The position numbers and the translations under genes were made by a program. A stretch of DNA of 64,000 bases from Candidatus Fermentibacterota bacterium (GTDB taxonomy: Bacteria > Fermentibacterota > Fermentibacteria > Fermentibacterales > JCC-6): assembly GCA_963845085.1 (NCBI GenBank), contig CAWJQI010000005.1:813604-877603 (forward strand), given 5' to 3'. The notes beneath the pieces are model-generated. The model ran no database searches and had not been told where the DNA came from. It saw only the letters and a list, made by a program, of their open reading frames with translations. Positions 6,277 to 56,220 of this stretch are shown here, piece by piece; position 1 is the first letter of the stretch, and each line of letters begins with the position of its first letter.

Positions 6277-7552
6277 TACCTGGAAGGTCCGGGGCGGCTG
6301 CCGGCTCGAGGGCACATTGATGCCCGCGGGCAGCAAGAACGCCGCCCTGCCCGAACTCGCAGCCTGCCTGCTCACCGATTCGTCGTGCACGCTTACGAAC
6401 ACACCCGGAATTCGCGACGTTGAGGCGATGAAGGGCATACTCGAGGGCATGGGGTGCAGCGTGGTTTCCGAGGGGCATTCCGTTTCCATCGACCCGGGCA
6501 ACGCCTCGCCCGGCCTTCTTGATAAAAACCTGTGCAGGAACATCAGGGCTTCGATCCTGCTTGCGGCTCCCATGGTCGCAAGGTTCGGCGAAGTCGAACT
6601 CCCGCCACCGGGCGGCGACATCATCGGCAGGCGCAGGCTCGACACGCATTTCCTCGCCCTCGAGAAGCTTGGCGCAGTTGTCGAGTACGAGCGGGACAGA
6701 ATCAGGATAACCGCCCCGGCGGGCCTTGCCGGCGCCAGGATCCACCTCGACGAGCCTTCCGTCACGGCCACCGAGAACGCACTCATGGCCGCCTGTGCAG
6801 CGGAGGGAGCAACCGAGATCTACAACGCGGCATGCGAGCCGAATGTGCAGGACCTCGCAGCCTTGCTGAGTGCGATGGGCGCCGACATTCGGGGCGCCGG
6901 AACGAACCTGATCCTTGTCCGGGGGCGGGGCGGTCTTCTCGGGGGGGCGTGTCACACGGTATGCCCCGACCACATCGAGATAGGCAGCTTCATCGGCCTT
7001 GCGGCCTGCTGCAGGGGGCGGGTTGAGATCCCGGGCGTTCCCGAATCCATAATTCAGCCCATCATGACAGGCCTTGGCAAGCTTGGCGTTGAGATAACGA
7101 CCAGCTGCGGCGGAATCGTCATCCCCGCCGATCAGCCCCTCGAGGTGAGACCCGACATCAGCGGCGACATACCAACCATCTATGACGGGCCCTGGCCCGG
7201 CTTTTCACCCGATCTTACGAGCACCGCCGTTGTGACGGCAACCCAGGCGAGGGGAACGAGCCTGATATTCGAGAAGATGTTTGAAAGCAGGCTGTTCTTC
7301 ACTGACAAGCTTACCGCGATGGGAGCAAGGCTCATTCTTTGCGACCCGCACAGGGTTGTCATTGCCGGCCCCTGCAGGCTGCATGGAACCGAGGTGTCGA
7401 GCCCGGATATAAGGGCGGGAATGGCTCTTCTCACGGCTGCGCTGTGCGCCGAGGGCGACACTGTCATACACAACGTGCGACAGATCGAGAGGGGCTACGA
7501 AAACATCGTGCAGAGGCTTTCCGCCCTGGGCGCCAACATTGAGGTCTGTTAG
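6257..7552 (+). CDS. murA: UDP-N-acetylglucosamine 1-carboxyvinyltransferase
   Basis: KVRGG.RL.G....GSKNAALP motif near the N-terminus. 431 aa EPT family. Start could be the ATG at 6266. Overlaps the upstream gene by ~20 nt. Confidence 0.9.
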   Translation: MAAMPADTWKVRGGCRLEGTLMPAGSKNAALPELAACLLTDSSCTLTNTPGIRDVEAMKGILEGMGCSVVSEGHSVSIDPGNASPGLLDKNLCRNIRASILLAAPMVARFGEVELPPPGGDIIGRRRLDTHFLALEKLGAVVEYERDRIRITAPAGLAGARIHLDEPSVTATENALMAACAAEGATEIYNAACEPNVQDLAALLSAMGADIRGAGTNLILVRGRGGLLGGACHTVCPDHIEIGSFIGLAACCRGRVEIPGVPESIIQPIMTGLGKLGVEITTSCGGIVIPADQPLEVRPDISGDIPTIYDGPWPGFSPDLTSTAVVTATQARGTSLIFEKMFESRLFFTDKLTAMGARLILCDPHRVVIAGPCRLHGTEVSSPDIRAGMALLTAALCAEGDTVIHNVRQIERGYENIVQRLSALGANIEVC

Positions 7553-39146: not shown

Positions 39147-40385
39147 CTATCTGATGAAGAGCACCCTGGCGGATGCCTTCTGTTCAAGGTTTCGCAGCAC
39201 CACGAAATAAACGCCTGCCGCAAGATCGCTGCCCTGCGAATTCCTGCCGTCCCAGAAAGCGGTTTGCACGCCCGCCGGACAGCTGCCGAGTTCCTGCGCG
39301 TGAACAAGGCGGCCGGCAGTGTCATAGACTTCGAGGGTCGTTGCGGAAAGGCCCGGTGATTCAAACACAACCGAAGTACCGGTGCTGAAGGGGTTGGGCT
39401 GAACCGAAACGATCTCCAGCATGCAGGCGGATCCGCCCTCACCTGCTGAGTTCGTTATCTCCCTCAGACCGAGGCTGTGGTAGTTCCCCGCCGCGACTCC
39501 GACAAAAGACTCGTTCGGAGGGGGAACATCGCATTGAGCGTAATAGTTGTAGCCCCAGGCCGAAATGGTTCCGTCATTGCGCAGCCCCAGGCTGTGCGAA
39601 TCCCCCCCGACCGCCGAATTGAAACCCGTGTTTGGCGAGGGCACCTGGCACTGGCCGTACGAGTTGTAGCCCCAGGCGATGAGGGTTCCGTCAGCCTTGA
39701 GGCCGAAGCTGTGATCGGCCCCGCACCCGACCGCCACAAAACCCGTGTTGGGCCAGGGCACTTCACACTGGTCGTGCGCGTTGGAGCCCCAGGCGGCTAT
39801 CGTGCCGTCCGACCTGAGGCCGAGGTTGTGATGCGAACCGGCGGCTATGGCAATGAAACCCTCGTTGGGCTCGGGAACATCGCACTGGCCCATGTCGTTC
39901 CGGCCCCATGCCTCGATCGATCCGTTGTCCCTCAACCCCAGCGAGTGCTGGTAGCCGGCCGCAATTGCGATGAACGACTCGTTCGGTTCAGGCACGTTGC
40001 ACTGGCCGTACTCGTTGTAACCCCAGGCAACGATCGAGCCCGACTCCTTCAGGCCCAGGCTGAAAACCAGCCCGCCGGCAACCGCTTCGAAGCCTTCGTT
40101 GGGCTCGGGTACGTCGCACTGACCCACAATGTTGTAGCCCCAGGCGACAATCTCACCGCTTTGAAGCAGGCCCAGGCTGTGGCTGCCGCCCGCAGCGACC
40201 GCCACGAACCCCTCGTTGGGCTCGGGAACATCGCACTGGCCGTACTCATTGTTTCCCCATGCGAGAATCCCGCCGTTGTAGTCGGCTCCGGCAGCCCCGG
40301 AAAAAACAAGCACAAGAATCGGAACAAACGTCTTTTTAAACAGCCTTTTCACAACATGCCCTCCTGTTTTTGCATAATTCAGCAA
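39147..40385 (-). CDS. RCC1-like repeat protein with T9SS C-terminal sorting domain
   Basis: ~8 tandem ~34-aa units of the form (I/V)(V/A)AWG.N..GQCDVPEPNEGF(V/I)A(V/I)AAG..HSLGL. C-terminus QPNPFSTGTSVVF...VYDTAGRLV...AAGVYFVVLR...RVLFIR is a T9SS CTD. Confidence 0.7.
   Translation of the reverse strand: MLNYAKTGGHVVKRLFKKTFVPILVLVFSGAAGADYNGGILAWGNNEYGQCDVPEPNEGFVAVAAGGSHSLGLLQSGEIVAWGYNIVGQCDVPEPNEGFEAVAGGLVFSLGLKESGSIVAWGYNEYGQCNVPEPNESFIAIAAGYQHSLGLRDNGSIEAWGRNDMGQCDVPEPNEGFIAIAAGSHHNLGLRSDGTIAAWGSNAHDQCEVPWPNTGFVAVGCGADHSFGLKADGTLIAWGYNSYGQCQVPSPNTGFNSAVGGDSHSLGLRNDGTISAWGYNYYAQCDVPPPNESFVGVAAGNYHSLGLREITNSAGEGGSACMLEIVSVQPNPFSTGTSVVFESPGLSATTLEVYDTAGRLVHAQELGSCPAGVQTAFWDGRNSQGSDLAAGVYFVVLRNLEQKASARVLFIR
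39485..40280 (-). repeat. nucleotide-level tandem repeats (~100 nt period) encoding the RCC1-like units
   Basis: Recurring ...gtgccccgagcccaacgagggcttc... / ...gcctgggg(c/t)tacaac... blocks visible on the plus strand as reverse complements. Confidence 0.5.
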
Positions 40386-40599: not shown

Positions 40600-40764
40600 T
40601 CAGTGGCTGCAGCAGCAGCATCCTCCGGCTTTCTTTCCCTTTACTTCCATCGGTTCGCCGCAGCAGATAACTTCGCAGTCCTCGCACCCGCAGCTCTTCG
40701 TTACTTCAAGCTCCACGCCGCATTCCTTGCAGACGAGTTTGTCCCCGACCTTGATTGGCTGCAT
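40600..40764 (-). CDS. desulforedoxin-like small metal-binding protein with poly-Cys tail
   Basis: 54-aa ORF, below the 60-aa track cutoff: MQPIKVGDKLVCKECGVELEVTKSCGCEDCEVICCGEPMEVKGKKAGGCCCCSH. Matches the desulforedoxin pattern GD..x.C..CG....V........CCGE.M.. (D. gigas Dx: [33 protein letters not shown]). AAGGGG RBS 7 nt upstream. 215 nt upstream of the RCC1-like gene on the same strand. Confidence 0.6.
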   Translation of the reverse strand: MQPIKVGDKLVCKECGVELEVTKSCGCEDCEVICCGEPMEVKGKKAGGCCCCSH

Positions 40765-44565: not shown

Positions 44566-44841
44566 CTATCCTGAAAACAACTCGGAATGGGAACCTGCTC
44601 TTTCAAAGATCAGCATATCGCTTTCAATCTTATAGATAAGGAGCCAATCGGATTCCACATGGCATTCCCGTCTGCCGATATAACTGCCAACAAGCTGATG
44701 ATCCTTAAAGATCGGATCAAGTTTCTTCCCGGCGATCAACGACCTGGCAATCAGCTTGAATTGATCAATGTCTTTCCCCTGTTTTTCCGCAAGTTTGATG
44801 TCTTTTTTAAATTGCTTCGTGAAAACAGGACGATACATCAA
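44566..44841 (-). CDS. yafQ: type II toxin YafQ (RelE/ParE superfamily mRNA interferase)
   Basis: 91 aa. ...DHQLVGSYIGRRECHVESDWLLIYKIE... matches YafQ HxL.G...G.RECHI.PDWLLIY. Overlaps the upstream antitoxin gene by 4 nt. Lower-GC DNA. Confidence 0.8.
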   Translation of the reverse strand: MMYRPVFTKQFKKDIKLAEKQGKDIDQFKLIARSLIAGKKLDPIFKDHQLVGSYIGRRECHVESDWLLIYKIESDMLIFERAGSHSELFSG

Positions 44842-45104
44842 ATACCAAGCTTCTTGAACATGTCCTCCGCATTCTCGCAGAGAACAAGACCTTCACCGGA
44901 ATCGGTTTCATCCATCGTTCTCCTGGTAAGAGACGACGGTACAACCACATCAAAAGGCAGGCCGTTATTCATCTCTATCTGTTTGTAGTACAGTGTAATG
45001 GCTTGAGTTGTGGATAAGCCCAGACTCTGAAGGATTTCCTCTGCTTTTTCTTTAAGACTTGGTTCAAGCCTTGCTCTTACAGTAGCCGTCTTGCTCACAT
45101 TCAC
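44838..45104 (-). CDS. dinJ: antitoxin DinJ (RelB/DinJ family)
   Basis: 88 aa. N-terminal ribbon-helix-helix-like TVRARLEPSLKEKAEEILQSLGLSTTQAITLYYKQI. Immediately upstream of yafQ. Confidence 0.75.
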   Translation of the reverse strand: MNVSKTATVRARLEPSLKEKAEEILQSLGLSTTQAITLYYKQIEMNNGLPFDVVVPSSLTRRTMDETDSGEGLVLCENAEDMFKKLGI

Positions 45105-45175: not shown

Positions 45176-46267
45176 TTACTGCAATTCCATCATGTACACC
45201 AGAGGGTATAGCTCCGGGTTTTCAGGAAATGCAAGTATTCCCTCCCTGCCGACATGGAACCGCCAACGGTCACACTCCTGCCAGTCCGGCAGGCGCACGG
45301 TGCAGGTGAATGCGCGACTGCCTTCGGAGTCGAAAACATCGAATACCGGGTTCAGGTAGTCGCCTCTCAGAACCCAGAGCCTGCCTTCGCCGTCCATACC
45401 CATGCAGTCCACCATACAGAAGCACTCTGGCACCGTTATGGTAAAATCGACCGGGTTTCCGGTGGACCTGGTCCACATCGAATCGATGTACTCCATTTCA
45501 TCCTGAATCATTTCAGGTGGTTTCGGCTGCATGTGAACATCGGGAAGACGCATTTCCGTGATCAACTCCCCCTGAGTGGTGTAACCCTCGATCAGGTATT
45601 CATCAGCAACAGCTGCAGAAACGTAAACAATGCCGTCTGTTCCGGCTGATACAATGAAGTCGGCACCAAAAATGATCGGGTAGTGGGGGACAGTATTCTG
45701 GCAGAGGATCCTTTCAAGTGTGCCATCCCCTTCAAGCATCACCACCGCCTGCGTTACGGAATCCGAGTGATCCGGCATCAGGAACACTCCACAGAATTGT
45801 TCTCCCTGTACCGGGACGACCATGTGTGAAATCCCGTAGCCTGGGTCTTGAAGCTGAACCTCTCTTACGAAGCCCAGGGTATCGTCAAAAAGTACGACCT
45901 TTCTTTCCATTGCCCCGGCCTGAAGCCAGAATCCCCCCGTATTCGCGGGCACAACAAGCTTAACGTTCTGAAACTCGCCCGGACCGTTGCCGGCCAGCTG
46001 CCGCTGATGAAGACATTCACCAAGAGGAGAGAACATGAAGACTGTTTTCCGGGCTGCGTCGAGGACGACAAGATTTCCGTTGTCAATAATGCAGGCGGAA
46101 ATAACCGATCCAAACACAACCGGACCGGTTTCCGTACCAATTGAATCAATGACCGCAAGCTCCCGTTCCATCATCATGGAGGCCTGCTCTTGGTCGGCGC
46201 AGGCAAGAAGGCACATGATAAGAACAGGCAACAATTTGGCCGTTACTACAACTTGTGTCACGGACAT
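45176..46267 (-). CDS. six-bladed beta-propeller-like lipoprotein, unknown function
   Basis: ORF 45176..46309. Start moved to the ATG at 46267 (GAGAAGG RBS, lipobox LLAC). Low-GC island. Immediately downstream of the Cys-rich peptide ORF. Confidence 0.55.
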   Translation of the reverse strand: MSVTQVVVTAKLLPVLIMCLLACADQEQASMMMERELAVIDSIGTETGPVVFGSVISACIIDNGNLVVLDAARKTVFMFSPLGECLHQRQLAGNGPGEFQNVKLVVPANTGGFWLQAGAMERKVVLFDDTLGFVREVQLQDPGYGISHMVVPVQGEQFCGVFLMPDHSDSVTQAVVMLEGDGTLERILCQNTVPHYPIIFGADFIVSAGTDGIVYVSAAVADEYLIEGYTTQGELITEMRLPDVHMQPKPPEMIQDEMEYIDSMWTRSTGNPVDFTITVPECFCMVDCMGMDGEGRLWVLRGDYLNPVFDVFDSEGSRAFTCTVRLPDWQECDRWRFHVGREGILAFPENPELYPLVYMMELQ

Positions 46268-46333: not shown

Positions 46334-46471
46334 TTAGAACTGCAGACAGAGATCGAACGGGAGGCACCAGAACGGCTCCGAGCACTGGAAAATCATGCTG
46401 CACTTGTGCCAACCACAGATCTGCTTGTTCGCCTGAAAAACGGGAACCGTTGTTCCAACAAAGATTTCCAT
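46334..46471 (-). CDS. candidate Cys-rich precursor peptide (45 aa)
   Basis: MEIFVGTTVPVFQANKQICGWHKCSMIFQCSEPFWCLPFDLCLQF. Not in the ORF track (<60 aa). ATG with AAAGGG 8 nt upstream. 5 Cys with hexad periodicity. Lies between the rSAM/SPASM gene and the beta-propeller lipoprotein gene, on the same strand. Confidence 0.45.
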   Translation of the reverse strand: MEIFVGTTVPVFQANKQICGWHKCSMIFQCSEPFWCLPFDLCLQF

Positions 46472-46652
46472 TTGTGTTGCCCTTTCTATGTCAGGTTTGG
46501 ACACAGGCCATAGTTACCGCAGTCAAACTCACCGCCGCACGAAAATGTCAGGCTGCATGCAAGAGCGTTGCACTGCTGTTTACCGATACCCCCCACGAGG
46601 GGAACACTTGATGAGACAATGACCTCCAAGGCAATCTCCCTTCAGAAGGACA

Positions 46653-47921
46653 CTATGGATGCTGTTCTTTGCTGCGCACATGCAGGTAATACTTCTCTCT
46701 AATGAATTGCTCGTATGAGGATTCGGAGAACAGGCAATCGGGTTCGGTTCCAAACACGTGGTTGTACGGGCAACCACCAGCACAGGCTGGAAGCATTTTG
46801 CAGTCATAGCACGTGCTGGAATTGTTATAGGGATTGAAGGCATCCCATTTCGCATGCGTCATTACAATGCTTCGGACATCAAGGCCATAAGGCATTTCAT
46901 ATCTTTGTGTTTCGTTGGATGCAACTTCTCGCCAGCACTTCGCGATTCGGCCATCCGGCAGAACAACGATGCCGCTCATGTTCGTTGCAGTGCAGCCCGG
47001 CTGTCTTACCCCCAGGCAGTAGCGTGACATAGTGTCAGCTCCAACACATTTTGTAAGAATGTCACGATCTGGTTCGGCGCAACTATGTTTTGGGTAGTTT
47101 TTAATGGCTGCCGGGTATACATGCACCTGTGAATTGCTGCTGAACAGGTTTTTAACGTACTGAAAACTGCCTGCGGTCTCTGAATCAACATTCACGCGCA
47201 CGTTGATCCTCATGTGTTTTGATGCGCTGACAATGTTCCTAACCACAGTACGGTACGTTTCAATGCCACCGATCAATGGTCTGTTCCTGTTATGCCTTTC
47301 TGGAGGCCCATCCAGTGTGACCTGAGCAGATGTGACACCTATTTTAGATAATATTTTTGCTGTTGCTTCCTCAAGCAGGAACCCGTTAGATATAATTTGT
47401 GCCTGAAATTCGCATCCTTCGATTGAGTTCATTTCTTCCAGCAAAAAAATGCAAACATCCAGGTTGCAAAGCGGCTCACCCCCATAGAGAGTTATGAATG
47501 CGGCTTCTGAACCAAATTGCCTGCAGGCTTCGGCGATTGAGGATGCGGTCGCTTTGCTCATCGAAACCGGATCAAGACGCTTTTCGGTTTCGTAGCAGTA
47601 CCGACAATCGAAGTTGCATATTGTTGTCATTACTGCCGTTACTGCAAACGTTCCCTTGTGCTTCGCATTATCTGTAAGGATTCTTAGGTATTGCCTCTCA
47701 TCGAATGTTCCAGGTATCAGTGCGCCCATCTCGCAAAGTGTTTGGAACGTTTGCTCATCCTGGAAATGCAGGTCATCGGGACAAAGTGTCGATGACATCA
47801 CCTTCTCGAGCATTCCCCTCTTCCTGTCGTCGACCACTTTTACAAGCGCACCCGTGAAGCCGTTGTAAATAAGAAGGTAATCGCCCTCATCCAGCCACCA
47901 GTTGTACTGCGATAACTTCAT
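46653..47921 (-). CDS. radical SAM/SPASM-domain peptide-modifying enzyme (anSME-like maturase)
   Basis: ORF 46653..47954. The ATG at 47921 (MKLSQYNWW) with a GGAAG RBS is the likely start. CNFDCRYC radical-SAM cluster motif ~110 aa from the N-terminus (N-terminal extension). GGEPL motif. C-terminal CYDCKMLPACAGGC (CX2CX5CX3C SPASM). Confidence 0.8.
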   Translation of the reverse strand: MKLSQYNWWLDEGDYLLIYNGFTGALVKVVDDRKRGMLEKVMSSTLCPDDLHFQDEQTFQTLCEMGALIPGTFDERQYLRILTDNAKHKGTFAVTAVMTTICNFDCRYCYETEKRLDPVSMSKATASSIAEACRQFGSEAAFITLYGGEPLCNLDVCIFLLEEMNSIEGCEFQAQIISNGFLLEEATAKILSKIGVTSAQVTLDGPPERHNRNRPLIGGIETYRTVVRNIVSASKHMRINVRVNVDSETAGSFQYVKNLFSSNSQVHVYPAAIKNYPKHSCAEPDRDILTKCVGADTMSRYCLGVRQPGCTATNMSGIVVLPDGRIAKCWREVASNETQRYEMPYGLDVRSIVMTHAKWDAFNPYNNSSTCYDCKMLPACAGGCPYNHVFGTEPDCLFSESSYEQFIREKYYLHVRSKEQHP

Positions 47922-48222
47922 GCTTCCCTGGTTTCCCATCACAATACTGCACAATTTTGTTCGAGTAAATCAGGAGATAGCCCATTAGTTTCAGAAGCGC
48001 ATTTTCCGGTTGGTGCTCTCCCCCTCTTGGTGGCCGCAATGCTTGTCATTCCGAAGGTTCTTCAGCCTTTCCAGTACATCCTTTATTCCAAGTACGGCCC
48101 TGGGTCCACAATTTTCAAGTCAGCAATGAATCCACCCTTGCATGAGGATTCGCTCAACACCGCTCTCCCCTTCCGCTTGACATGCACCCGAGAAGCCCGA
48201 ATAGTGGCCACAGGGGTAGTAG

Positions 48223-50595
48223 ATGGATGCAGGGGGAAGGGGAATCGAGCTGAACAACGAAAACGCCGAACTCAAGCGGCGCGTTGCTTCCCTTGAAATG
48301 CAGCTTGGAGAACTTCAGGCCGATCATCGCCGGCTGCTTGAAGTTGAATCCATTCTTGACAGGCTTGCTGAACTCACCAGGGCCATCTTTTGGGAGACCG
48401 ACGCCGAAGGGCTGTTTACAAGGATAAACGACCTTTCGGAACTGGTCATCGGTTACAAACCGGATGAGATCATTGGAAAGATGCACTTCTTCGACCTGTT
48501 CCCCGAAGAGGGGCGCGAAGAGTTCCGCCGCACAAGCATGGAAGCCTTTGCGAGGAAGGATTCCTTCCGCAACGTTGGAAACCCTGTTGTGACGCGTGAT
48601 GGCCGCATTCGCTGGCTTGTCACCAACGGCGTTCCCCTTCTCAACCCTGACGGAAGCCTCAGAGGGTACAGGGGGCTGGATGTTGATATCACCGAGAGAA
48701 AGGCGTCCGAAGAGGCGCTTCTTGTGAAGAACTACGTTTTCGACGTCTCCATCGCCGCCAACAGCATCTCCGACACGAACGGGCTTGTGACTGAGGTCAA
48801 CGATGCGTTCCTTCGAACATGGGGATATCCGGACCGTTCAGCAGTGATAGGGAAGGCATTCACAGACTTCCTCGCGCATCCCGATGTGGCCGACGGTTTC
48901 CGGGAGAGGCTGCTGAGGGAAGAGCAGTGGGAGGGGGACTACGAGGCCAGACGGATGGACGGTTCCACCTTCATAGCCCACGGCCTTGCCACCACGTTGA
49001 GGGACAAGTCGGGAATGCACATCGGTTATCAGTCATCGGTGATAGACATTTCCGAAACAAAACAGGTCGAGGGCCAGCTCAGGGAGAGCGAGGCCAGGAA
49101 CACGGCCATCCTCAACGCACTTCCGGATCTGATGTTCCTTCTCGACAGCGAGGGCTTTTTCGTTGACTTTCATACAGCCAGTGATGCCCAGCTTCTCATG
49201 CCGCCCGAGTTCTTCCTCGGCAAACGCATCCAGGATGTTCTTCCCGATGAAATCTGGAGGCCGACAGTCGCCCGCATCCAGTCCCTGCGCAACGGGCAGG
49301 AGACAACGCCCTTCAAATACGAGGCAAAAATGGGCGATGACACCAGATACTTCGAAAGCAGGCTTGTCTCCTGCGGAGATGACCGTTTCATGTCCATCGT
49401 CCGGGACATCACCGATCTGCGTCTCGGAGAACTCGAGCAGGAAAAGCTTCACGCCCAACTCAGGCAGGCGCACAAGATGGAGTCGGTCGGCAGGCTCGCC
49501 GGCGGGGTTGCCCACGACTTCAACAACATGCTGAGCGTGATCCTTGGCCATGTCGAGATGGCCATGGAGAAAACACCTCCTTCACATCCTGTCATGGCCG
49601 ACCTGCTTGAGATTCTGCAGAGCACTGAACGTTCCGCGGAACTCACACGGCAGCTTCTTGCGTTCGCCCGCAGACAGTCCGTATCACCCAGAGTCCTTGA
49701 TCTCAACTCCACTTTGAACGGCATGCTGAACATGCTCCGAAGGCTCATCGGCGAGGACATCGAGCTTCGCTGGTTTCCTGGCGGCGACCTGTGGCCTGTG
49801 CTGGTCGATCCCCCACAGATGAGCCAGATGCTTGCAAACCTTTGCATAAATGCACGACAGGCTCTGTCCGGTACCGGCCGGATCACGATCAAGACCGGCA
49901 ACGTCACCCTCGAGGACGATTTTTGCAGGGAGCACCCGGGTTCCCGAAAGGGCGACCATGTTCTGCTGGTCATCAACGACAACGGCTGCGGGATGGACAG
50001 AGAGATCATCGACCACATCTTCGAACCCTTCTTCACAACAAGGCAGCCGGGGCAGGGAACGGGGCTCGGGCTTTCGATGGTGTACGGAATAGTGAAACAG
50101 AGCAACGGCTACATCGATGTGGAGAGCGAGCCCGGGAAGGGAACGGAATTCAGGGTCTACCTTCCCAGAAGCAGAACACCCGTTCAGCCGCTTCTTGAAT
50201 CCGTCGACACGTCCGTCAGGCAGCGCGGAAACGAGACCATACTGCTCGTGGAGGACGAAAAGTCCATTCTCGAGATGGCGGGCATAATGCTGGAAAACCT
50301 CGGCTACACGGTTCTCTACGCCTCAACACCATCAATGGCGCTTGAACTCGCAAGGGAAAACCAGGGCAGCATCCGTCTCCTGATTACCGACGTCATCATG
50401 CCGGAACTCAATGGGAGGGATCTGGCCTGGAACCTCAGGAGGATAATTCCCGGCCTGAAATGTCTGTTCATGTCGGGCTACACATCCAACGTGATTGCGC
50501 ACCATGGCGTTCTGGACGAGGGAGTGCACTTCATTCCCAAGCCCTTTACCTCGAAGAAGCTGGCCGCAAGCGTGAGGAATGCATTGGGCGGGTAG
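48223..50595 (+). CDS. hybrid sensor histidine kinase (coiled-coil, PAS domains, HisKA-HATPase, C-terminal receiver)
   Basis: [14 protein letters not shown]-box. G-box [10 protein letters not shown]-terminal REC domain ([13 protein letters not shown]...[12 protein letters not shown]). Confidence 0.8.
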
Positions 50596-50753
50596 CCTCG
50601 CGTCAGTGCGAATACTTGGCGGGTTATTGACCCCGCCCGTCGGTCAACACTATCATTCTCAGCGGGAAAATGGTTTGTAGAGCTGCGCCGTCGGCCGGCA
50701 CTTGTGTCGCGCTCGTAACCGCGCATGCAGGCACTTCAGCAAGGGGGGAACGG

Positions 50754-51827
50754 ATGAAATCGGTTCTGCTTGTTCTTGTGGCTTTTGCAGCAATCCCCGG
50801 CGCCACTGTAATTGACCACACATGCACCGATCTTGAAAGTATTCCCGCCACCTGGATCGACCTTGTCCAGAGCACCATGAAAAGCCACTACGCGCACACC
50901 TCCCACGGCGGCCAGCTCACATACGGGCTGGAATTCGTCGAACAGGGCGATCCCGCATACGCCTATCTCGTCGGAAGCAGTTACCTGCCATCCTCATCGA
51001 CTGCTTACTGCGTCTTCGACGGTCAGGAGTCAGAAACCTACATCACCCCCGAGCTTTACTGGGAAAGTGCAGCGGGCATCCAGATGACAAGGGATGTTCT
51101 CAACCACAATCCAACCATCTGCACGTCGATGTGGAGCTGGTGCACCCAGTGCGACTACTACTCCCAGGAGCAGGTTCAGGACTACCTCGATGTGATGAGC
51201 CAGCTTGAAAGCGAGTTCCCCGACGTTACGTTCATCTACTTCACCGGCAACGCGCAGTCGGAGGGATCAAGCGGCTACAACAGACATTTGCGGAACGAGC
51301 AGATCCGGGCCTACTGCCAGAGCAACGACAAGGTTCTTTTCGACTTCGCCGACCTCGACTGCTGGTGGTTCAACCCGGCGACGCAGACCTGGGAGCAGAA
51401 CACCTACTCCTACGGGGGGAGCGCCGTCCCCTCCGAACACCCCCACTTCTCGGGCGACGAGTACGGCCATACAACAGCTGAGAGCTGCGAGCAAAAGGGC
51501 CGTGCGTGGTGGTACATGATGGCTTTGCTTGCCGGCTGGTCGGGAACGGGGATCTCGGGACCCGCTGAAGGTCTCCTCCCTGCCGCCGTGACCGTATCCC
51601 CCAACCCGTCATCCGGCGTTTCATGCATTACCGTCGATCTCGCTTCCTCCGGGCGGGTGCGCGTGAGCGTGCTCGATCTCGCGGGAAGGGTTGTATACGA
51701 GTCCGACTCCACGCTCGAGAAAGGCATGCACACGTTCCCCGTCGTTCTCGGGCAGAGCGGCGTCTTCCTTGTCTCTGTCGAAGCGGGTGCCGAACGGCAC
51801 ATTTCAAGGCTTGTCACACTGGAATGA
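50754..51827 (+). CDS. secreted protein with T9SS C-terminal sorting domain
   Basis: ORF 50670..51827. Start moved to the ATG at 50754 (AAGGGGGG RBS, signal peptide MKSVLLVLVAFAAIPGA). C-terminus VSPNPSSGVSCITVDL...VSVLDLAGRVVYES...GVFLVSVE...RLVTLE. Confidence 0.65.
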   Translation: MKSVLLVLVAFAAIPGATVIDHTCTDLESIPATWIDLVQSTMKSHYAHTSHGGQLTYGLEFVEQGDPAYAYLVGSSYLPSSSTAYCVFDGQESETYITPELYWESAAGIQMTRDVLNHNPTICTSMWSWCTQCDYYSQEQVQDYLDVMSQLESEFPDVTFIYFTGNAQSEGSSGYNRHLRNEQIRAYCQSNDKVLFDFADLDCWWFNPATQTWEQNTYSYGGSAVPSEHPHFSGDEYGHTTAESCEQKGRAWWYMMALLAGWSGTGISGPAEGLLPAAVTVSPNPSSGVSCITVDLASSGRVRVSVLDLAGRVVYESDSTLEKGMHTFPVVLGQSGVFLVSVEAGAERHISRLVTLE

Positions 51828-51911: not shown

Positions 51912-53951
51912 ATGAAAGGCTTGAAACGTTTGCCTTCGTTCCTCCGCCGATGGGAGACCATCTGCTTGCTGCTCGGAGTGGCTCTCCTCGCAGCGGCGCC
52001 CCTTCTCGAGGAACGCATGCAGGACGAAAGAGCATCCGGGATCATCTTCACAGCGGGGCTTCTTCTTACGATGGTGGCCTGCACAGCCCTTGCAGTACGC
52101 CTGCTCAGGCTTCTGGCAGGGCTTCTTTTCCACAGGGTGCGCAGCAGGATAATAGCCAACTATGTGCTCACCGGCGTGCTCCCGCTGCTGCTGGTGTTCA
52201 TGCTTGTAGCCTCGCTTTCCCATTTCTTCATGCTTCAGCTTGCCAGCACCCAGCTGAAACAGGCCATCGAACGAGAGTTTCTTCGCCTCGAGGCTGCGGC
52301 CGTCAGAAGCTCCTACCTCGTCAACGAGTCCACTGACACTCTGAGCGCCGAATGCCGAGGGTTCCTTGAACGCGAGTATGCAGGCTTCAGGCTTGCCGTG
52401 ACTGATTCATCGGGAACAGGTGACTCCCTCACAAGCCTGACTGTGGGAAGGTTACGCTACGTCCCGGCTTGCGATTCTCTTCAGGGATCGTTCCTTGTAA
52501 TGCAGGACACGGTTTTCCTGGCAGTGTCGGTTCCCGCGGGCGCATGTCCGGGCGGCAGACCCCTTGTGCTGGCGGTTCCGATACGGGGCAGGCTTCTCGA
52601 GGAGATTGAGCGCGAACTCGGCGGGAACTGCATGTTCTCCTACGGCACCGGCATCACCGATGAACAACCCGAGCCCGGGAGGGGTTCCCTAAACTTCCAG
52701 ATCAGCGCAGGACCCGAAGGCTCATCTGGCTTCAGCTTCACCCAGTCGTCGGATCTGGAACGCAGGGTAAACGAGTGGACAATGGCCCAGCCGGACGGGT
52801 TTCCCCACATCATCTCCTACTCCCTCAATGCAGGTTTCCTTGTGGATGATGAAGGCATGGCCAGCGAGGTGATGGTCCTCGGCCTGGTCAGCACAACGTA
52901 CACATTCGTTGCCGGAAGGATCATTCAGGGAGCGATTCCCGAGGACGTGCCCATGAAGAGGGTGTTCCTGTGGGGAGCGATCATTCTCGCCGCGATCTTC
53001 AGCGCGATCGAACTGGTTGCGCTCATAATCAGCCTGGTGCTCTCGCGCTCCATCACGAAAACCATCGCCCAGCTTCACAAAAAGGCGGATTGTGTGGCCA
53101 GGGGTGACTTTTCATACCGGATCAACTCGGAGCGGAAGGACCAGCTCGGCCTTCTCGCAAACTCGTTCGACAGAATGTCTGACTCGCTCGAGCTTCTTCT
53201 CGAACAGGTGAAGGAGAAGGAGAGGATCGAGCATGAGCTTGCCATAGCCCAGGAAGTGCAGCGGATTTTCTTCCCGAAGAGCTTCCCCGAGGTCAACGGG
53301 ATCAGCCTGCTCGGAAGGTGCCTGCCCGCCCGGATGGTCTCGGGTGACTACTACGACTGCATTCCCCACCAGGAGGGGATGATAGACTTCTTCATCGGCG
53401 ACATCAGCGGCAAGGGAATCTCGGCCGCGCTGCTCATGGCGGGCTCCCAGACTTTTCTGAGATCGGAGGCCGCAAGGCGCCCTCTTCCACCGGTAACCCG
53501 GATCGTGGAAAGCTTCAACAAGTACCTTGTCCAGTACAGCGCCGAGGGCAAGTTCTCGTCGCTCTTCTATGGAAGGCTCGATCCGGCGAAACGAACCCTC
53601 ACCTGCTGCAACGCGGGCCATCCCAGACCGTTCCTCTTCAGACGCGGTGTCGTGACCGAATTGACGGTGGGCGGCCTCATCCCGGGTGTGCTGCCAACAG
53701 CCCCCTACGGGGAGGAAACGATCCAGCTTGAAGAGGGGGACCTTCTTGTGGCATTTACGGACGGCTTTACCGAGGCATTCAACCCCGATGATCAGGAGTT
53801 CGGAGAGAAGCGCCTCTCGGATACGGTCGAAGCATATCTGAAGGAAAGCCTGGAAGGCATCTGCGACCATCTCGTCAAGACCATAGACAGCTGGTCGGCC
53901 GCCCGTGTCCAGGCCGATGACATGACGATCTTTCTTGTGAGGGTGGGATAA
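51912..53951 (+). CDS. membrane sensor with HAMP domain and PP2C-type (SpoIIE/RsbU-like) serine phosphatase domain
   Basis: TM segments. HAMP-like LSRSITKTIAQLHKKADCVARGDFSYRI. PP2C motifs (ELAIAQEVQ, GDYYD, FFIGDISGKGISAAL, DGFTEA). Confidence 0.75.
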   Translation: MKGLKRLPSFLRRWETICLLLGVALLAAAPLLEERMQDERASGIIFTAGLLLTMVACTALAVRLLRLLAGLLFHRVRSRIIANYVLTGVLPLLLVFMLVASLSHFFMLQLASTQLKQAIEREFLRLEAAAVRSSYLVNESTDTLSAECRGFLEREYAGFRLAVTDSSGTGDSLTSLTVGRLRYVPACDSLQGSFLVMQDTVFLAVSVPAGACPGGRPLVLAVPIRGRLLEEIERELGGNCMFSYGTGITDEQPEPGRGSLNFQISAGPEGSSGFSFTQSSDLERRVNEWTMAQPDGFPHIISYSLNAGFLVDDEGMASEVMVLGLVSTTYTFVAGRIIQGAIPEDVPMKRVFLWGAIILAAIFSAIELVALIISLVLSRSITKTIAQLHKKADCVARGDFSYRINSERKDQLGLLANSFDRMSDSLELLLEQVKEKERIEHELAIAQEVQRIFFPKSFPEVNGISLLGRCLPARMVSGDYYDCIPHQEGMIDFFIGDISGKGISAALLMAGSQTFLRSEAARRPLPPVTRIVESFNKYLVQYSAEGKFSSLFYGRLDPAKRTLTCCNAGHPRPFLFRRGVVTELTVGGLIPGVLPTAPYGEETIQLEEGDLLVAFTDGFTEAFNPDDQEFGEKRLSDTVEAYLKESLEGICDHLVKTIDSWSAARVQADDMTIFLVRVG

Positions 53952-54940: not shown

Positions 54941-55201
54941 TCATTTGTCGGCCATGGCGATGATCATCACCATGCCTGCCATGAGAATGATTGCCGCTGC
55001 AATGCCCGCGACGATGCAACTGAGCCTGGATCTCTGCGGGTACTCCATCTTTTCGTTATCGCCTGAAGCCTGAGGGATCGGGAGTTCCTCGGCCTGCAGC
55101 ATCACCCCGCAGTTGGGGCACTCCTTTGAGGCGCTGACAAACACGATCTTCTCGCACGAAGGGCACTTGGCAAAACTCACGTCTCCATCACCTCTTTCCA
55201 T
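54941..55201 (-). CDS. zinc-ribbon protein with C-terminal TM helix
   Basis: ORF 54941..55237; the ATG at 55201 is the likely start. CPSCEK...CPNCG zinc ribbon, then hydrophobic IVAGIAAAIILMAGMVMIIAM. Overlaps the 3' end of the rSAM gene by ~25 nt. Confidence 0.5.
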   Translation of the reverse strand: MERGDGDVSFAKCPSCEKIVFVSASKECPNCGVMLQAEELPIPQASGDNEKMEYPQRSRLSCIVAGIAAAIILMAGMVMIIAMADK

Positions 55202-56220
55202 CCGGCGTTGTGAACCTCGGGACAACCTGCATCGCAATCATATCGCTTTTCGCATGCGCCGCAGAAAGCAGGCATTCCGAACGTTCCAAGGGCGAAGTTC
55301 CTCCAGCGGGGATGCGAGGAGGCCTTCCTCCATTCCGTATGGTGGGCGATGCGCACACGGGAGTGGTTGCATACCCTGAGATAGCCCGATGGATCAATGG
55401 CGAAAAAGGTCTTTACCGCACTGCAGCGATACCCCACATGCAGCTTCCTGAGATCGGAAAGCCCCTCTACGCAAACCGGGAACTCGGTGCCGGTTGCCCC
55501 CGGAACACCCGATGCCACAAGCACGTCATCCGCGATGCGGATCATCTCCGAGAGGTCCCTCATATCCAGGGAAAGCTCGCCGATGTGCTTAAGCCCGCGC
55601 CCCCCGGGCAGGAAACGGTTCAAAAGAACCTGGCCGGCCCCGGCAAGGATCGCAGCGCTCATCGTCTCATAGAGTTCGAAAAGGTTCTTTTTTGTGACCG
55701 TGATGTTGGCAGTGGTTTTGACCCCGGCCTTCTTCGCCCTGCCGAAAAGGCCCAGGATCATCTCTGCGCCGGGATGCCCAGTATGCCATTCGTAGGTTGA
55801 AAGACCGGGCAGGCTGAGGCTGAGGGAAACTCCGAGACCGGAAAGCTCCCTGAGTACGGCTGAGGTGACCGTCCTGCCGTTTGAGAGAAGTGTGACCGTG
55901 GGTTGAACGCTTCTTGCGGCAAGCACACCGTCCACCTCCTCAACCAGCTCCACCTGCCGGTTGCGGGCGTGGGCAACCAGTTCGAGGCAGTCTTTCCGCA
56001 GCAGCGACTCGCCCCCTGTGAAGCCGAAGGAACTCACCCCCAGACCGCAGAGGGTGTCGATGAGACCCTTCCACTCCTGTGTGTCCATTTCCGGAAGCCT
56101 GGGGAAGTCATCACCGTACTCCCATGGGCATGAGCAGTACCTGCAGACGTGGTTGCACATGTAGGTGAGCTCAAGCACCGCCATCGATGGCAGGAAGGAG
56201 GGCGCTGCGACCCGGTTCAT
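55177..56220 (-). CDS. radical SAM/SPASM-domain enzyme (anSME/QhpD-like, no N-terminal RRE)
   Basis: CNHVCRYCS radical-SAM motif at residues ~22-30. GGESLL motif. C-terminal CGACEKRYDCDAGC (CX2CX5CX3C SPASM). Its ATG overlaps the upstream paralog stop (ATGA). Confidence 0.8.
   Translation of the reverse strand: MNRVAAPSFLPSMAVLELTYMCNHVCRYCSCPWEYGDDFPRLPEMDTQEWKGLIDTLCGLGVSSFGFTGGESLLRKDCLELVAHARNRQVELVEEVDGVLAARSVQPTVTLLSNGRTVTSAVLRELSGLGVSLSLSLPGLSTYEWHTGHPGAEMILGLFGRAKKAGVKTTANITVTKKNLFELYETMSAAILAGAGQVLLNRFLPGGRGLKHIGELSLDMRDLSEMIRIADDVLVASGVPGATGTEFPVCVEGLSDLRKLHVGYRCSAVKTFFAIDPSGYLRVCNHSRVRIAHHTEWRKASSHPRWRNFALGTFGMPAFCGACEKRYDCDAGCPEVHNAGWKEVMET

Follow-up and report, generated by a model that had tools for sequence, protein, structure and literature searches.

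What does a radical S-adenosylmethionine (SAM) enzyme with a SPASM domain modify when it carries a long N-terminal extension and lies outside every curated family? The question is raised by a gene at 46653–47921, on the reverse strand, of a 64,000-nucleotide stretch of a Candidatus Fermentibacterota genome (GenBank assembly GCA_963845085.1, contig CAWJQI010000005.1, positions 813,604 to 877,603; hereafter the window). An earlier note, made by reading the DNA sequence alone, had taken the extension for a PqqD-like recognition element (RRE) of the kind that serves peptides made on the ribosome and modified after translation (RiPPs), and had proposed that the enzyme is a peptide-modifying SPASM maturase rather than a protein modifier of the anSME or QhpD type. 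The computational analysis reported here leads to the same place: we think it likely that the protein carries out the modification in a small RiPP-type cassette, which is composed of the enzyme, two precursor peptides and an NHL-propeller lipoprotein. The strongest support for the peptide-maturase reading comes from conserved genes for Cys-rich peptides, located just 3′ of that for the enzyme.

Two small Cys-rich peptides are encoded directly downstream of the enzyme

A gap of 344 bp separates the gene for the enzyme from the next large one and contains two tandem small open reading frames (ORFs) on the same strand, encoding peptide 1 (MEVIVSSSVPLVGGIGKQQCNALACSLTFSCGGEFDCGNYGLCPNLT) and peptide 2 (MEIFVGTTVPVFQANKQICGWHKCSMIFQCSEPFWCLPFDLCLQF). 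Neither peptide is present, as an exact sequence, among the called proteins of a 15-billion protein collection. Homologous peptides, one or two per locus, were found in the same position at all loci where the enzyme is 42–50% identical to that of the window (our loci L002/L003, L004, L005/L006 and L167). The peptide of L002/L003 is MTTICGPLIPLLVLVGDQQCSGATCDEGFTCSTPFGCEDYIQIASI and that of L004 is (M)TLLSLGSIPLLTIQSAEICDNHGCDGDFECAGVFKCTVHYILI; L005/L006 encode two peptides and L167 one, and peptide 2 of the window is close to the L005 peptide MEIVIEPSLPGALVARICQGYTCSGWFFCDSVFLCSKFDICAFY. The pairing of enzyme and peptide extends to enzymes that are 31–34% identical (L168, L169, L172/L173, L176 and L016), which are also accompanied by Cys-rich peptides with a similar leader.

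The leader of these peptides is hydrophobic, spans 17–21 residues and contains a conserved proline (M-E-h-h-h-x-x-x-h-P-h-h). It is followed by a core of the form C-x4-C-x5-C-x5-C(-x5-C), in which four Cys residues are conserved and a fifth is found in four of the seven core-family peptides. A Phe, Tyr or Trp located two residues before Cys3 and before Cys4 is conserved across the core family, and in the wider peptide family Cys residues are the only invariant residues of the core. Because only 3–9 residues follow Cys4, a hairpin like that of sactipeptides, which needs a long acceptor segment at the C terminus, would be impossible, and any crosslinks would have to be small rings within the inter-Cys loops.

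That the small ORFs arose by chance was considered and rejected on the basis of their conservation, their position, their Shine-Dalgarno sequences and the pattern of synonymous and nonsynonymous changes. In a six-frame regular-expression search of ORFs of up to 90 aa, the motif C-x4-C-x5-C-x5-C occurred twice in the 64-kb window, both times between the enzyme and propeller genes; at the family loci the search returned exactly the peptides described here, and in ~1.2 Mb of unrelated loci it gave only four scattered matches. A canonical Shine-Dalgarno sequence precedes every peptide ORF. Between the peptide ORFs of L172 and L173, five codons differ synonymously and one exchanges Val and Ile, a conservative change. 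As judged from such comparisons, the small ORFs are under purifying selection.

Seven peptides (the two from the window together with those from L002, L004, L005 and L167) were compared with the NCBIfam precursor models and matched none of them. The sole NCBIfam match at E ≤ 10, between one L005 peptide and a flavin adenine dinucleotide (FAD)-binding protein (E 0.21), was discarded as spurious. A profile built from twelve peptides retrieved 11 small peptides only among 1.84 billion representatives, two of which (P0141 and P0142) are new.

Another of these 11 peptides, P0136 (MLLVNPPAMPDLGGMLDNEQCDEQCKHFYMQCVCQTLDMWPF), is encoded on the same 1.04-Mb contig and outside the window, indicating that the genome has a second cassette. 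P0136 belongs to the L172/L173 subtype, whose loci hold an enzyme together with two or three propeller lipoproteins. At L174/L175, the enzyme is 31% identical to that of the window (P0013), the next protein encoded has 102 aa and is very rich in Cys (6280..6588; ...CFKHCGGGHCGGQTDDCRKQRTCDDKCMGLGTCAKQSGTWCSHQSDDCGDKGMCSNKCAGRG...), and the propeller is absent; this protein would be a substrate of another kind, at the margin of the clade.

The enzyme contains a complete set of radical SAM and SPASM cysteines

The enzyme gene could begin at the ATG at 47921 or at an alternative TTG at 47954, which would add 11 residues. The ATG was taken as the start because homologues of the enzyme begin at an equivalent MKLSxYNW in the alignment. 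The ORF is not a chance one, given its score of 61.9 bits against Pfam Radical_SAM (PF04055) and its 388 homologues at E ≤ 1e-10.

Invariance of Cys residues was judged from alignments of 13 and of 109 homologues. The invariant Cys residues of the enzyme are, in full, C102, C106 and C109 of the radical SAM cluster motif and C310, C329, C371, C374, C380, C384 and C396 of the SPASM domain. The latter are spaced as C310-x13-G324-x4-C329, C371-x2-C374-x5-C380-x3-C384 (CYDCKMLPACAGGC) and C396, which is the complete seven-Cys signature. The GGE-type SAM motif (G147-G148-E149-P150) is likewise invariant in the 109 homologues. These homologues were used to build an AlphaFold2 model of the enzyme with a mean predicted local distance difference test score (pLDDT) of 92.5, in which residues 92–272, the region of the partial TIM barrel, form strands alternating with helices.

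The seven SPASM Cys residues predict two auxiliary [4Fe-4S] clusters, of which auxiliary cluster I (Aux I) would probably have an open iron site. No eighth SPASM Cys is invariant in the enzyme. CteB likewise has a seven-Cys SPASM domain and ligates Aux I with three Cys residues. TigE, too, has seven, and its Aux I is ligated by three of them (PMC10878394).

The description of this gene in the earlier note is therefore confirmed. A radical SAM/SPASM ORF with an invariant triad and an invariant seven-Cys SPASM signature is present at 46653–47921. The CNFDCRYC cluster, placed by the note about 110 residues into the protein, corresponds to C102/C106/C109 and lies ~100 residues in from the ATG, or 113 in the version that begins at the TTG. 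The segment that it quoted as preceding the cluster, WLDEGDYLLIYNGFTGALVKVVDDRKRGMLEKVMSS, corresponds to residues 9–44. Its C-terminal CX2CX5CX3C motif is formed by invariant residues (C371/C374/C380/C384), and the auxiliary clusters that it predicted from this motif rest on the sequence.

The N-terminal extension folds as an RRE-like domain

In the AlphaFold2 model, the N-terminal domain contains three strands (residues 7–11, 16–20 and 25–29) and three helices (residues 32–42, 48–54 and 56–65). The same β3-α3 topology was obtained when residues 1–92 were modelled alone (pLDDT 93.2). The RRE winged helix in TigE, CteB and SuiB is built in this way, with three helices after three antiparallel strands (PMC10878394).

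Two comparisons with the Protein Data Bank (PDB) connect the isolated domain to RREs. Of its nine best matches in a Foldseek search, eight were RRE proteins (among them TbiB1 with leader, ThcOx, the PbtF RRE and lasso B1), with a best probability of 0.97 and best template-modelling (TM) scores of 0.56/0.61. A hidden Markov model of 45 N-terminal domains matched TigE residues 9–97 with E 0.0022 in the whole PDB sequence set, and TigE was the only PDB protein with an RRE that this profile could detect by sequence. The RRE in the TigE crystal structure comprises residues 3–85 (PMC10878394).

Three results count against the domain assignments. Pfam PqqD (PF05402) was undetected in residues 1–94, even at E ≤ 10, and Pfam SPASM (PF13186) gave no match in the C-terminal 123 residues at the same threshold. 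Pfam is thus blind to both domains by sequence, and the analysis therefore turned to structure. Here, the Foldseek E-values for the N-terminal domain are individually weak (0.07–0.8), such that the evidence from this search is an enrichment of RRE proteins and not any single significant match.

With these points included, the RRE fold of the N-terminal domain is, on the models, established as far as computation can reach, and the domain is predicted to bind a leader. The PqqD-like RRE proposed by the earlier note was thus recovered as a fold, by AlphaFold2, by Foldseek and by the TigE profile, and was not recovered as a Pfam PqqD match; an N-terminal region without an RRE-like fold would be at odds with all three of the former results.

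The enzyme is related to peptide maturases and distant from all curated families

NCBIfam bit scores were judged against the curated cut-offs of the models, which for peptide maturases are 400–600. The best-scoring curated model was NF052473 (FlmE/OhkG; 164.8 bits, cut-off 500), ahead of TIGR04463 ("rSAM vs C-rich"; 146 bits), TIGR04334 (Clo7bot; 137 bits), NF038107 (CefB, "Cys-every-fifth"; 136.6 bits, cut-off 600) and TIGR04280 (geopeptide maturase; 132 bits), and all five align with the enzyme from residue 1. In contrast, the models for QhpD (TIGR03906; 59 bits against 453), anSME (TIGR03942; 47 bits against 349, residues 99–262 only) and the SCIFF maturase (TIGR03974; 44.5 bits against 425) align with the core only. 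The models for the cyclophane-forming enzymes AmcB, YhhB and FxsB gave significant, weaker scores (41–55 bits). Since all of these scores fall below the cut-offs, the enzyme is neither anSME nor QhpD-type and does not belong to any curated family of peptide maturases.

The fold of the full-length model was compared with the PDB, and the top match was CteB (5WGG, 5WHY; TM 0.68–0.70), with 453–463 aligned columns that include the CteB RRE. Structures of anSMEs were also significant matches (E ~4e-12), over ~384 columns, and left the N-terminal domain unaligned. Among the neighbours of the enzyme gene there is no sulfatase gene and no gene of the qhpA/B/C type. The choice made in the earlier note, a peptide-modifying SPASM maturase over an anSME or QhpD enzyme, is therefore supported by the maturase models (132–165 bits, compared with 47 and 59 bits) and by CteB as the top fold match; placement within the anSMEs, the alternative that it had named, does not fit a core-only anSME match and a best full-length match to CteB.

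Close relatives of the enzyme are few. In a set of 5.8 billion clustered proteins, an identity of 42–50% to it is reached by no more than four clusters, and all others are at most 34% identical. A phmmer search of the full enzyme against the PDB gave weak core matches only, and no relative was found in viral contigs. Among the matches listed, scans of genome and metagenome contigs gave only relatives of at most 30% identity; a known JGI locus was not among them, and the silence of these scans on close relatives therefore weighs little.

Propeller lipoproteins recur beside the enzyme and its peptides

The lipoprotein of the cassette is predicted to be an NHL-type six-bladed β-propeller that resembles DUF5128 proteins. 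It scores 21.5 bits against PF17170 (DUF5128), for which the cut-off is 22.9, and its orthologues at L004 and L167 score 36.7–39.1 bits. A profile of 17 propeller homologues matched the NHL propellers of TRIM2/TRIM71 (E ~1e-38) and a Bacteroides-type exported protein (4RAA; E 4e-9), with a weak match to peptidylglycine amidating lyase. The lipobox Cys and the motifs DSIG and GxGPGEF are kept in 17/17 homologues, and in the closest group a Cys pair is conserved in the C-terminal part.

The order of enzyme, one or two Cys-rich peptides and one to three propeller lipoproteins is found at about ten independent metagenomic loci. Propeller genes follow the enzyme and peptide genes in the window, L002/L003, L004, L005, L167, L169, L172, L173 and L176, and precede them in L168; at L016 the association is weak. 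Five of these loci (L168, L169, L172, L173 and L176) have an enzyme that is 31–34% identical, with a different Cys spacing and a similar leader in the peptides. L004, L168, L169 and L176 also encode an ATP-binding cassette (ABC) exporter, which lacks a peptidase domain. When 160 loci of enzymes that are at most 30% identical were inspected, a propeller was found in L016 only (absent from 159 of the 160).

A lone propeller lipoprotein that is 51% identical to that of the window is encoded at L171 (4854..5999), where it adjoins a spermine-synthase-like membrane protein and has neither a radical SAM/SPASM gene nor a Cys-rich peptide adjacent to it. The propeller family is thus not confined to the cassette.

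The association between propellers and such a cassette is undescribed in the literature that we searched; given the incomplete coverage of that literature, this is no more than absence of evidence. A search for literature on DUF5128 found none, and a paper on RiPP mining in Bacteroidales leaves propellers unmentioned. The propeller could serve in immunity, as a receptor, in extracytoplasmic tailoring, in removal of the leader or as a stably bound partner of the peptide.

A proposed leader-guided thioether mechanism and its alternatives

We infer from the nearest families, and from Cys as the invariant core residues, that the peptide cysteines are most likely crosslinked as thioethers in a leader-guided reaction. 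According to this model, the winged-helix RRE (residues ~1–70) would bind the ~18–19-residue hydrophobic leader of both peptides, with the leader probably pairing as an extra strand beside β3. The cluster held by C102/C106/C109 would cleave SAM to generate a 5′-deoxyadenosyl radical, which would abstract a hydrogen atom from a core residue. The two auxiliary clusters of the SPASM domain would hold the substrate thiolate, probably at the open iron site of Aux I, and take up an electron. Each conserved core Cys would thereby be bridged through a thioether (sactionine or ranthionine) to a residue of an adjacent loop between Cys residues, resulting in a compact multi-ring peptide. Following export, this product would meet, or be handled by, the extracytoplasmic NHL propeller lipoprotein.

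Several points weigh against this model. The support for thioether formation comes from sequence and fold, and the chemistry of the nearest named family, FlmE/OhkG, is uncharacterised (PMC12703449). RRE-bearing radical SAM/SPASM enzymes also form C–C, C–O and cyclopropyl links, and epimerise their substrates. The leader is unusually short, the window contains no protease, and there is no exporter gene less than about 6 kb from the cassette. Moreover, the aromatics that precede Cys3 and Cys4 by two positions are as conserved as the Cys residues, which makes them possible reactive partners in another chemistry.

Such a chemistry could be a C–C cyclophane (on triceptide-like F-x-C units), a C–O link, an epimerisation or a radical rearrangement, performed by the same enzyme on the same peptides, with the Cys residues serving as disulfides or metal ligands. 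We regard this as unlikely, although the conserved aromatics and the significant scores of the cyclophane models are consistent with it, as is the fact that the only PDB RRE detectable by sequence belongs to TigE, a cyclopropyl synthase. In addition, function in this superfamily cannot be read from full-length similarity (PMC10288494). However, the best-scoring curated families all act on Cys-rich peptides, Cys alone is invariant in the core of the wider peptide family, CteB, which gives the best fold match over the full length, is a thioether synthase, and the G-x4-C cysteine of the enzyme is found in KCWRE and not in the GYW motif of cyclopropyl synthases. Much further from the evidence is an anSME- or QhpD-like enzyme whose target is a full-length protein, such as the neighbouring lipoprotein prior to export, and to which the small ORFs are irrelevant. 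The fold match to anSME structures and the conserved Cys pair of the propeller would agree with such an activity, but the anSME model scores far below its cut-off and covers the core only, the anSME alignment omits the N-terminal domain, sulfatases are absent nearby, and the small ORFs are conserved, preceded by Shine-Dalgarno sequences and subject to purifying selection; we consider it very improbable.

In quinohemoprotein amine dehydrogenase (QHNDH), QhpD crosslinks the small Cys-rich γ subunit (QhpC), which sits against the β-propeller subunit QhpB. The cassette resembles this system by functional analogy, in that both join a radical SAM/SPASM enzyme to a small Cys-rich polypeptide and an extracytoplasmic β-propeller, and it is conceivable that the crosslinked peptide is exported to become a tightly bound small subunit, a ligand or a peptide-derived cofactor of the NHL propeller. 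The propellers are strictly co-conserved with the enzyme clade, down to two or three paralogues per locus, and are missing from nearly all loci with more distant enzymes; exporters are encoded at four loci, and a protease for leader removal is absent. Against the analogy, the enzyme scores only 59 bits against the QhpD model, the propeller here is a predicted NHL six-bladed lipoprotein and not QhpB, no haem subunit, subtilisin-like protease or cytochrome/dehydrogenase partner is present, and the L171 propeller stands without enzyme or peptide. Binding of the peptide to the propeller is itself conjecture, and we judge such a subunit role to be rather doubtful. Similarly low is the chance we would give to a broader proposal, that the cassette is not an antibiotic pathway and instead matures a radical-crosslinked mini-peptide for cell-surface or periplasmic NHL-propeller lipoproteins; such a module would loosely parallel the γ subunit of QHNDH, or pyrroloquinoline quinone with propeller dehydrogenases.

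Comparison with characterised and named systems

The layout of the enzyme (RRE, radical SAM barrel and seven-Cys SPASM domain) and its small Cys-rich substrates, as we take them to be, are shared with CteB, the maturase of SCIFF ranthipeptides. However, CteB is only 16% identical to the enzyme, and SCIFF precursors are unrelated to the peptides found here, with their short hydrophobic leader and C-x4-C-x5-C-x5-C core. To our knowledge, SCIFF systems have no propeller partner. TigE, a cyclopropylglycine synthase (8VPO), also has the RRE, radical SAM and SPASM layout, and its RRE is matched by sequence; in contrast, identity is 13%, the GYW motif is missing here, and the precursors of the window are not TVGG-type repeats.

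The proteins behind the best-scoring model, FlmE and OhkG, are uncharacterised radical SAM/SPASM enzymes of orphan "DD(I/V)LF" RiPP clusters in Bacteroidota (PMC12703449). Their RRE and core are homologous to those of the enzyme, with the alignment running from residue 1, but the peptides of the cassette end in CPNLT or CLQF and not in DD(I/V)LF, and a peptide arginase is absent here. The families of TIGR04463, TIGR04334, NF038107 and TIGR04280 are full-length homologues (132–146 bits) with small Cys-rich precursors, and the spacing of 5–6 residues between Cys residues here is reminiscent of the "Cys-every-fifth" pattern of CefB; the enzyme nevertheless scores far below their cut-offs, and the peptides match no NCBIfam precursor model. 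The lipoprotein appears to lie in the same fold and family neighbourhood as the DUF5128/NHL six-bladed propellers (PF17170; 4RAA, "putative exported protein"), except that it falls just under the Pfam threshold and has no NCBIfam name.

RRE-bearing radical SAM/SPASM crosslinkers of ribosomal peptides are already well known, and the enzyme itself is ordinary. What extends beyond them, as far as the sequences tell, is a very rare precursor family without a curated model, in which a very short, hydrophobic leader precedes a C-x4-C-x5-C-x5-C core that includes conserved aromatic residues, and an enzyme clade distant from every curated threshold. Gene callers mostly miss the precursor family. To these is added a tight linkage to NHL/DUF5128 propeller lipoproteins, which is apparently undescribed for RiPP systems. 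If the small-ring thioethers are real, they would constitute a new compact scaffold, and should the product be bound or processed by the propeller, this would be the first function for a large family of uncharacterised exported DUF5128-type propellers. As the cassette family is rare and its source organisms are uncultured, the practical impact would stay modest until heterologous expression.

Genomic context of the cassette

Table 1. Position of the cassette and of the adjoining toxin–antitoxin genes in the window
Feature	Coordinates	Strand	Remarks
Radical SAM/SPASM enzyme gene (likely peptide maturase)	46653..47921	(-)	422 aa from ATG; ORF, Pfam Radical_SAM, NCBIfam, AlphaFold2, Foldseek
N-terminal RRE-like domain, residues 1–90	47652..47921	(-)	β1-β2-β3-α1-α2-α3 plus linker helix 75–88
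CX3CX2C radical SAM cluster motif, C102/C106/C109	47595..47618	(-)	Invariant in 109 homologues
SPASM domain, C310, C329, C371, C374, C380, C384, C396	46734..46994	(-)	Seven invariant Cys
Putative precursor peptide 1, 47 aa, unannotated	46486..46629	(-)	TTG start, GGGAG Shine-Dalgarno 6 nt upstream; MEVIVSSSVPLVGGIGKQQ-CNALACSLTFSCGGEFDCGNYGLCPNLT
Putative precursor peptide 2, 45 aa, unannotated	46334..46471	(-)	ATG start, AAGGG Shine-Dalgarno; MEIFVGTTVPVFQANKQI-CGWHKCSMIFQCSEPFWCLPFDLCLQF
Predicted NHL-type six-bladed β-propeller lipoprotein, 363 aa, DUF5128-like	45176..46267	(-)	Lipobox LLAC; ATG after GAGAAGG Shine-Dalgarno
RelB/DinJ antitoxin	44838..45104	(-)	4-nt overlap with toxin gene
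RelE/YafQ toxin	44566..44841	(-)	Pfam/NCBIfam

A RelE/YafQ–RelB/DinJ pair is located directly 3′ of the cassette (Table 1). The pair shares the low-GC stretch of the cassette and is not conserved at the other loci, and it is probably not a functional part of the cassette. The low-GC stretch extends over ~44.4–48.2 kb, with a GC content of 0.43 in the toxin–antitoxin genes and 0.46–0.55 in the cassette, compared with 0.57–0.60 in the flanks, which suggests that the cassette was acquired horizontally. The stretch is bounded by a Δ1-pyrroline-5-carboxylate (P5C) dehydrogenase gene and by a gene for a PAS hybrid histidine kinase. At the boundaries of this island we found no flanking repeats, other than short ones at chance level, and no integrase; a promoter and terminator scan of 44.4–48.3 kb gave counts within chance.

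The gene that adjoins the cassette on the enzyme side (48223..50595, forward strand) is divergent and encodes a hybrid sensor kinase with the domain order PAS-PAS-HisKA-HATPase-REC. Further along on the same strand is a gene for a HAMP-SpoIIE (PP2C) phosphatase (51912..53951). A second radical SAM ORF of 347 aa (55177..56220, reverse strand) contains the cluster motif CNHVCRYC and is without an N-terminal extension. Its best NCBIfam scores are for AhbD (59 bits, cut-off 500), PqqE (54 bits) and ScmF (52 bits), and it is unclassified.

On the other side of the cassette, the reverse strand contains a 54-aa Cys-rich ORF (40600..40764; MQPIKVGDKLVCKECGVELEVTKSCGCEDCEVICCGEPMEVKGKKAGGCCCCSH) that ends in GGCCCCSH and matches no Pfam or NCBIfam model; it may be a desulforedoxin-like or metal-binding protein. 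Secreted proteins with C-terminal type A sorting domains of the type IX secretion system (Por_Secre_tail), which hint that the host probably belongs to the FCB group or to a related candidate phylum, are encoded at 39147..40385 on the reverse strand and at 50670..51827 on the forward strand, and the former also contains RCC1-like repeats.

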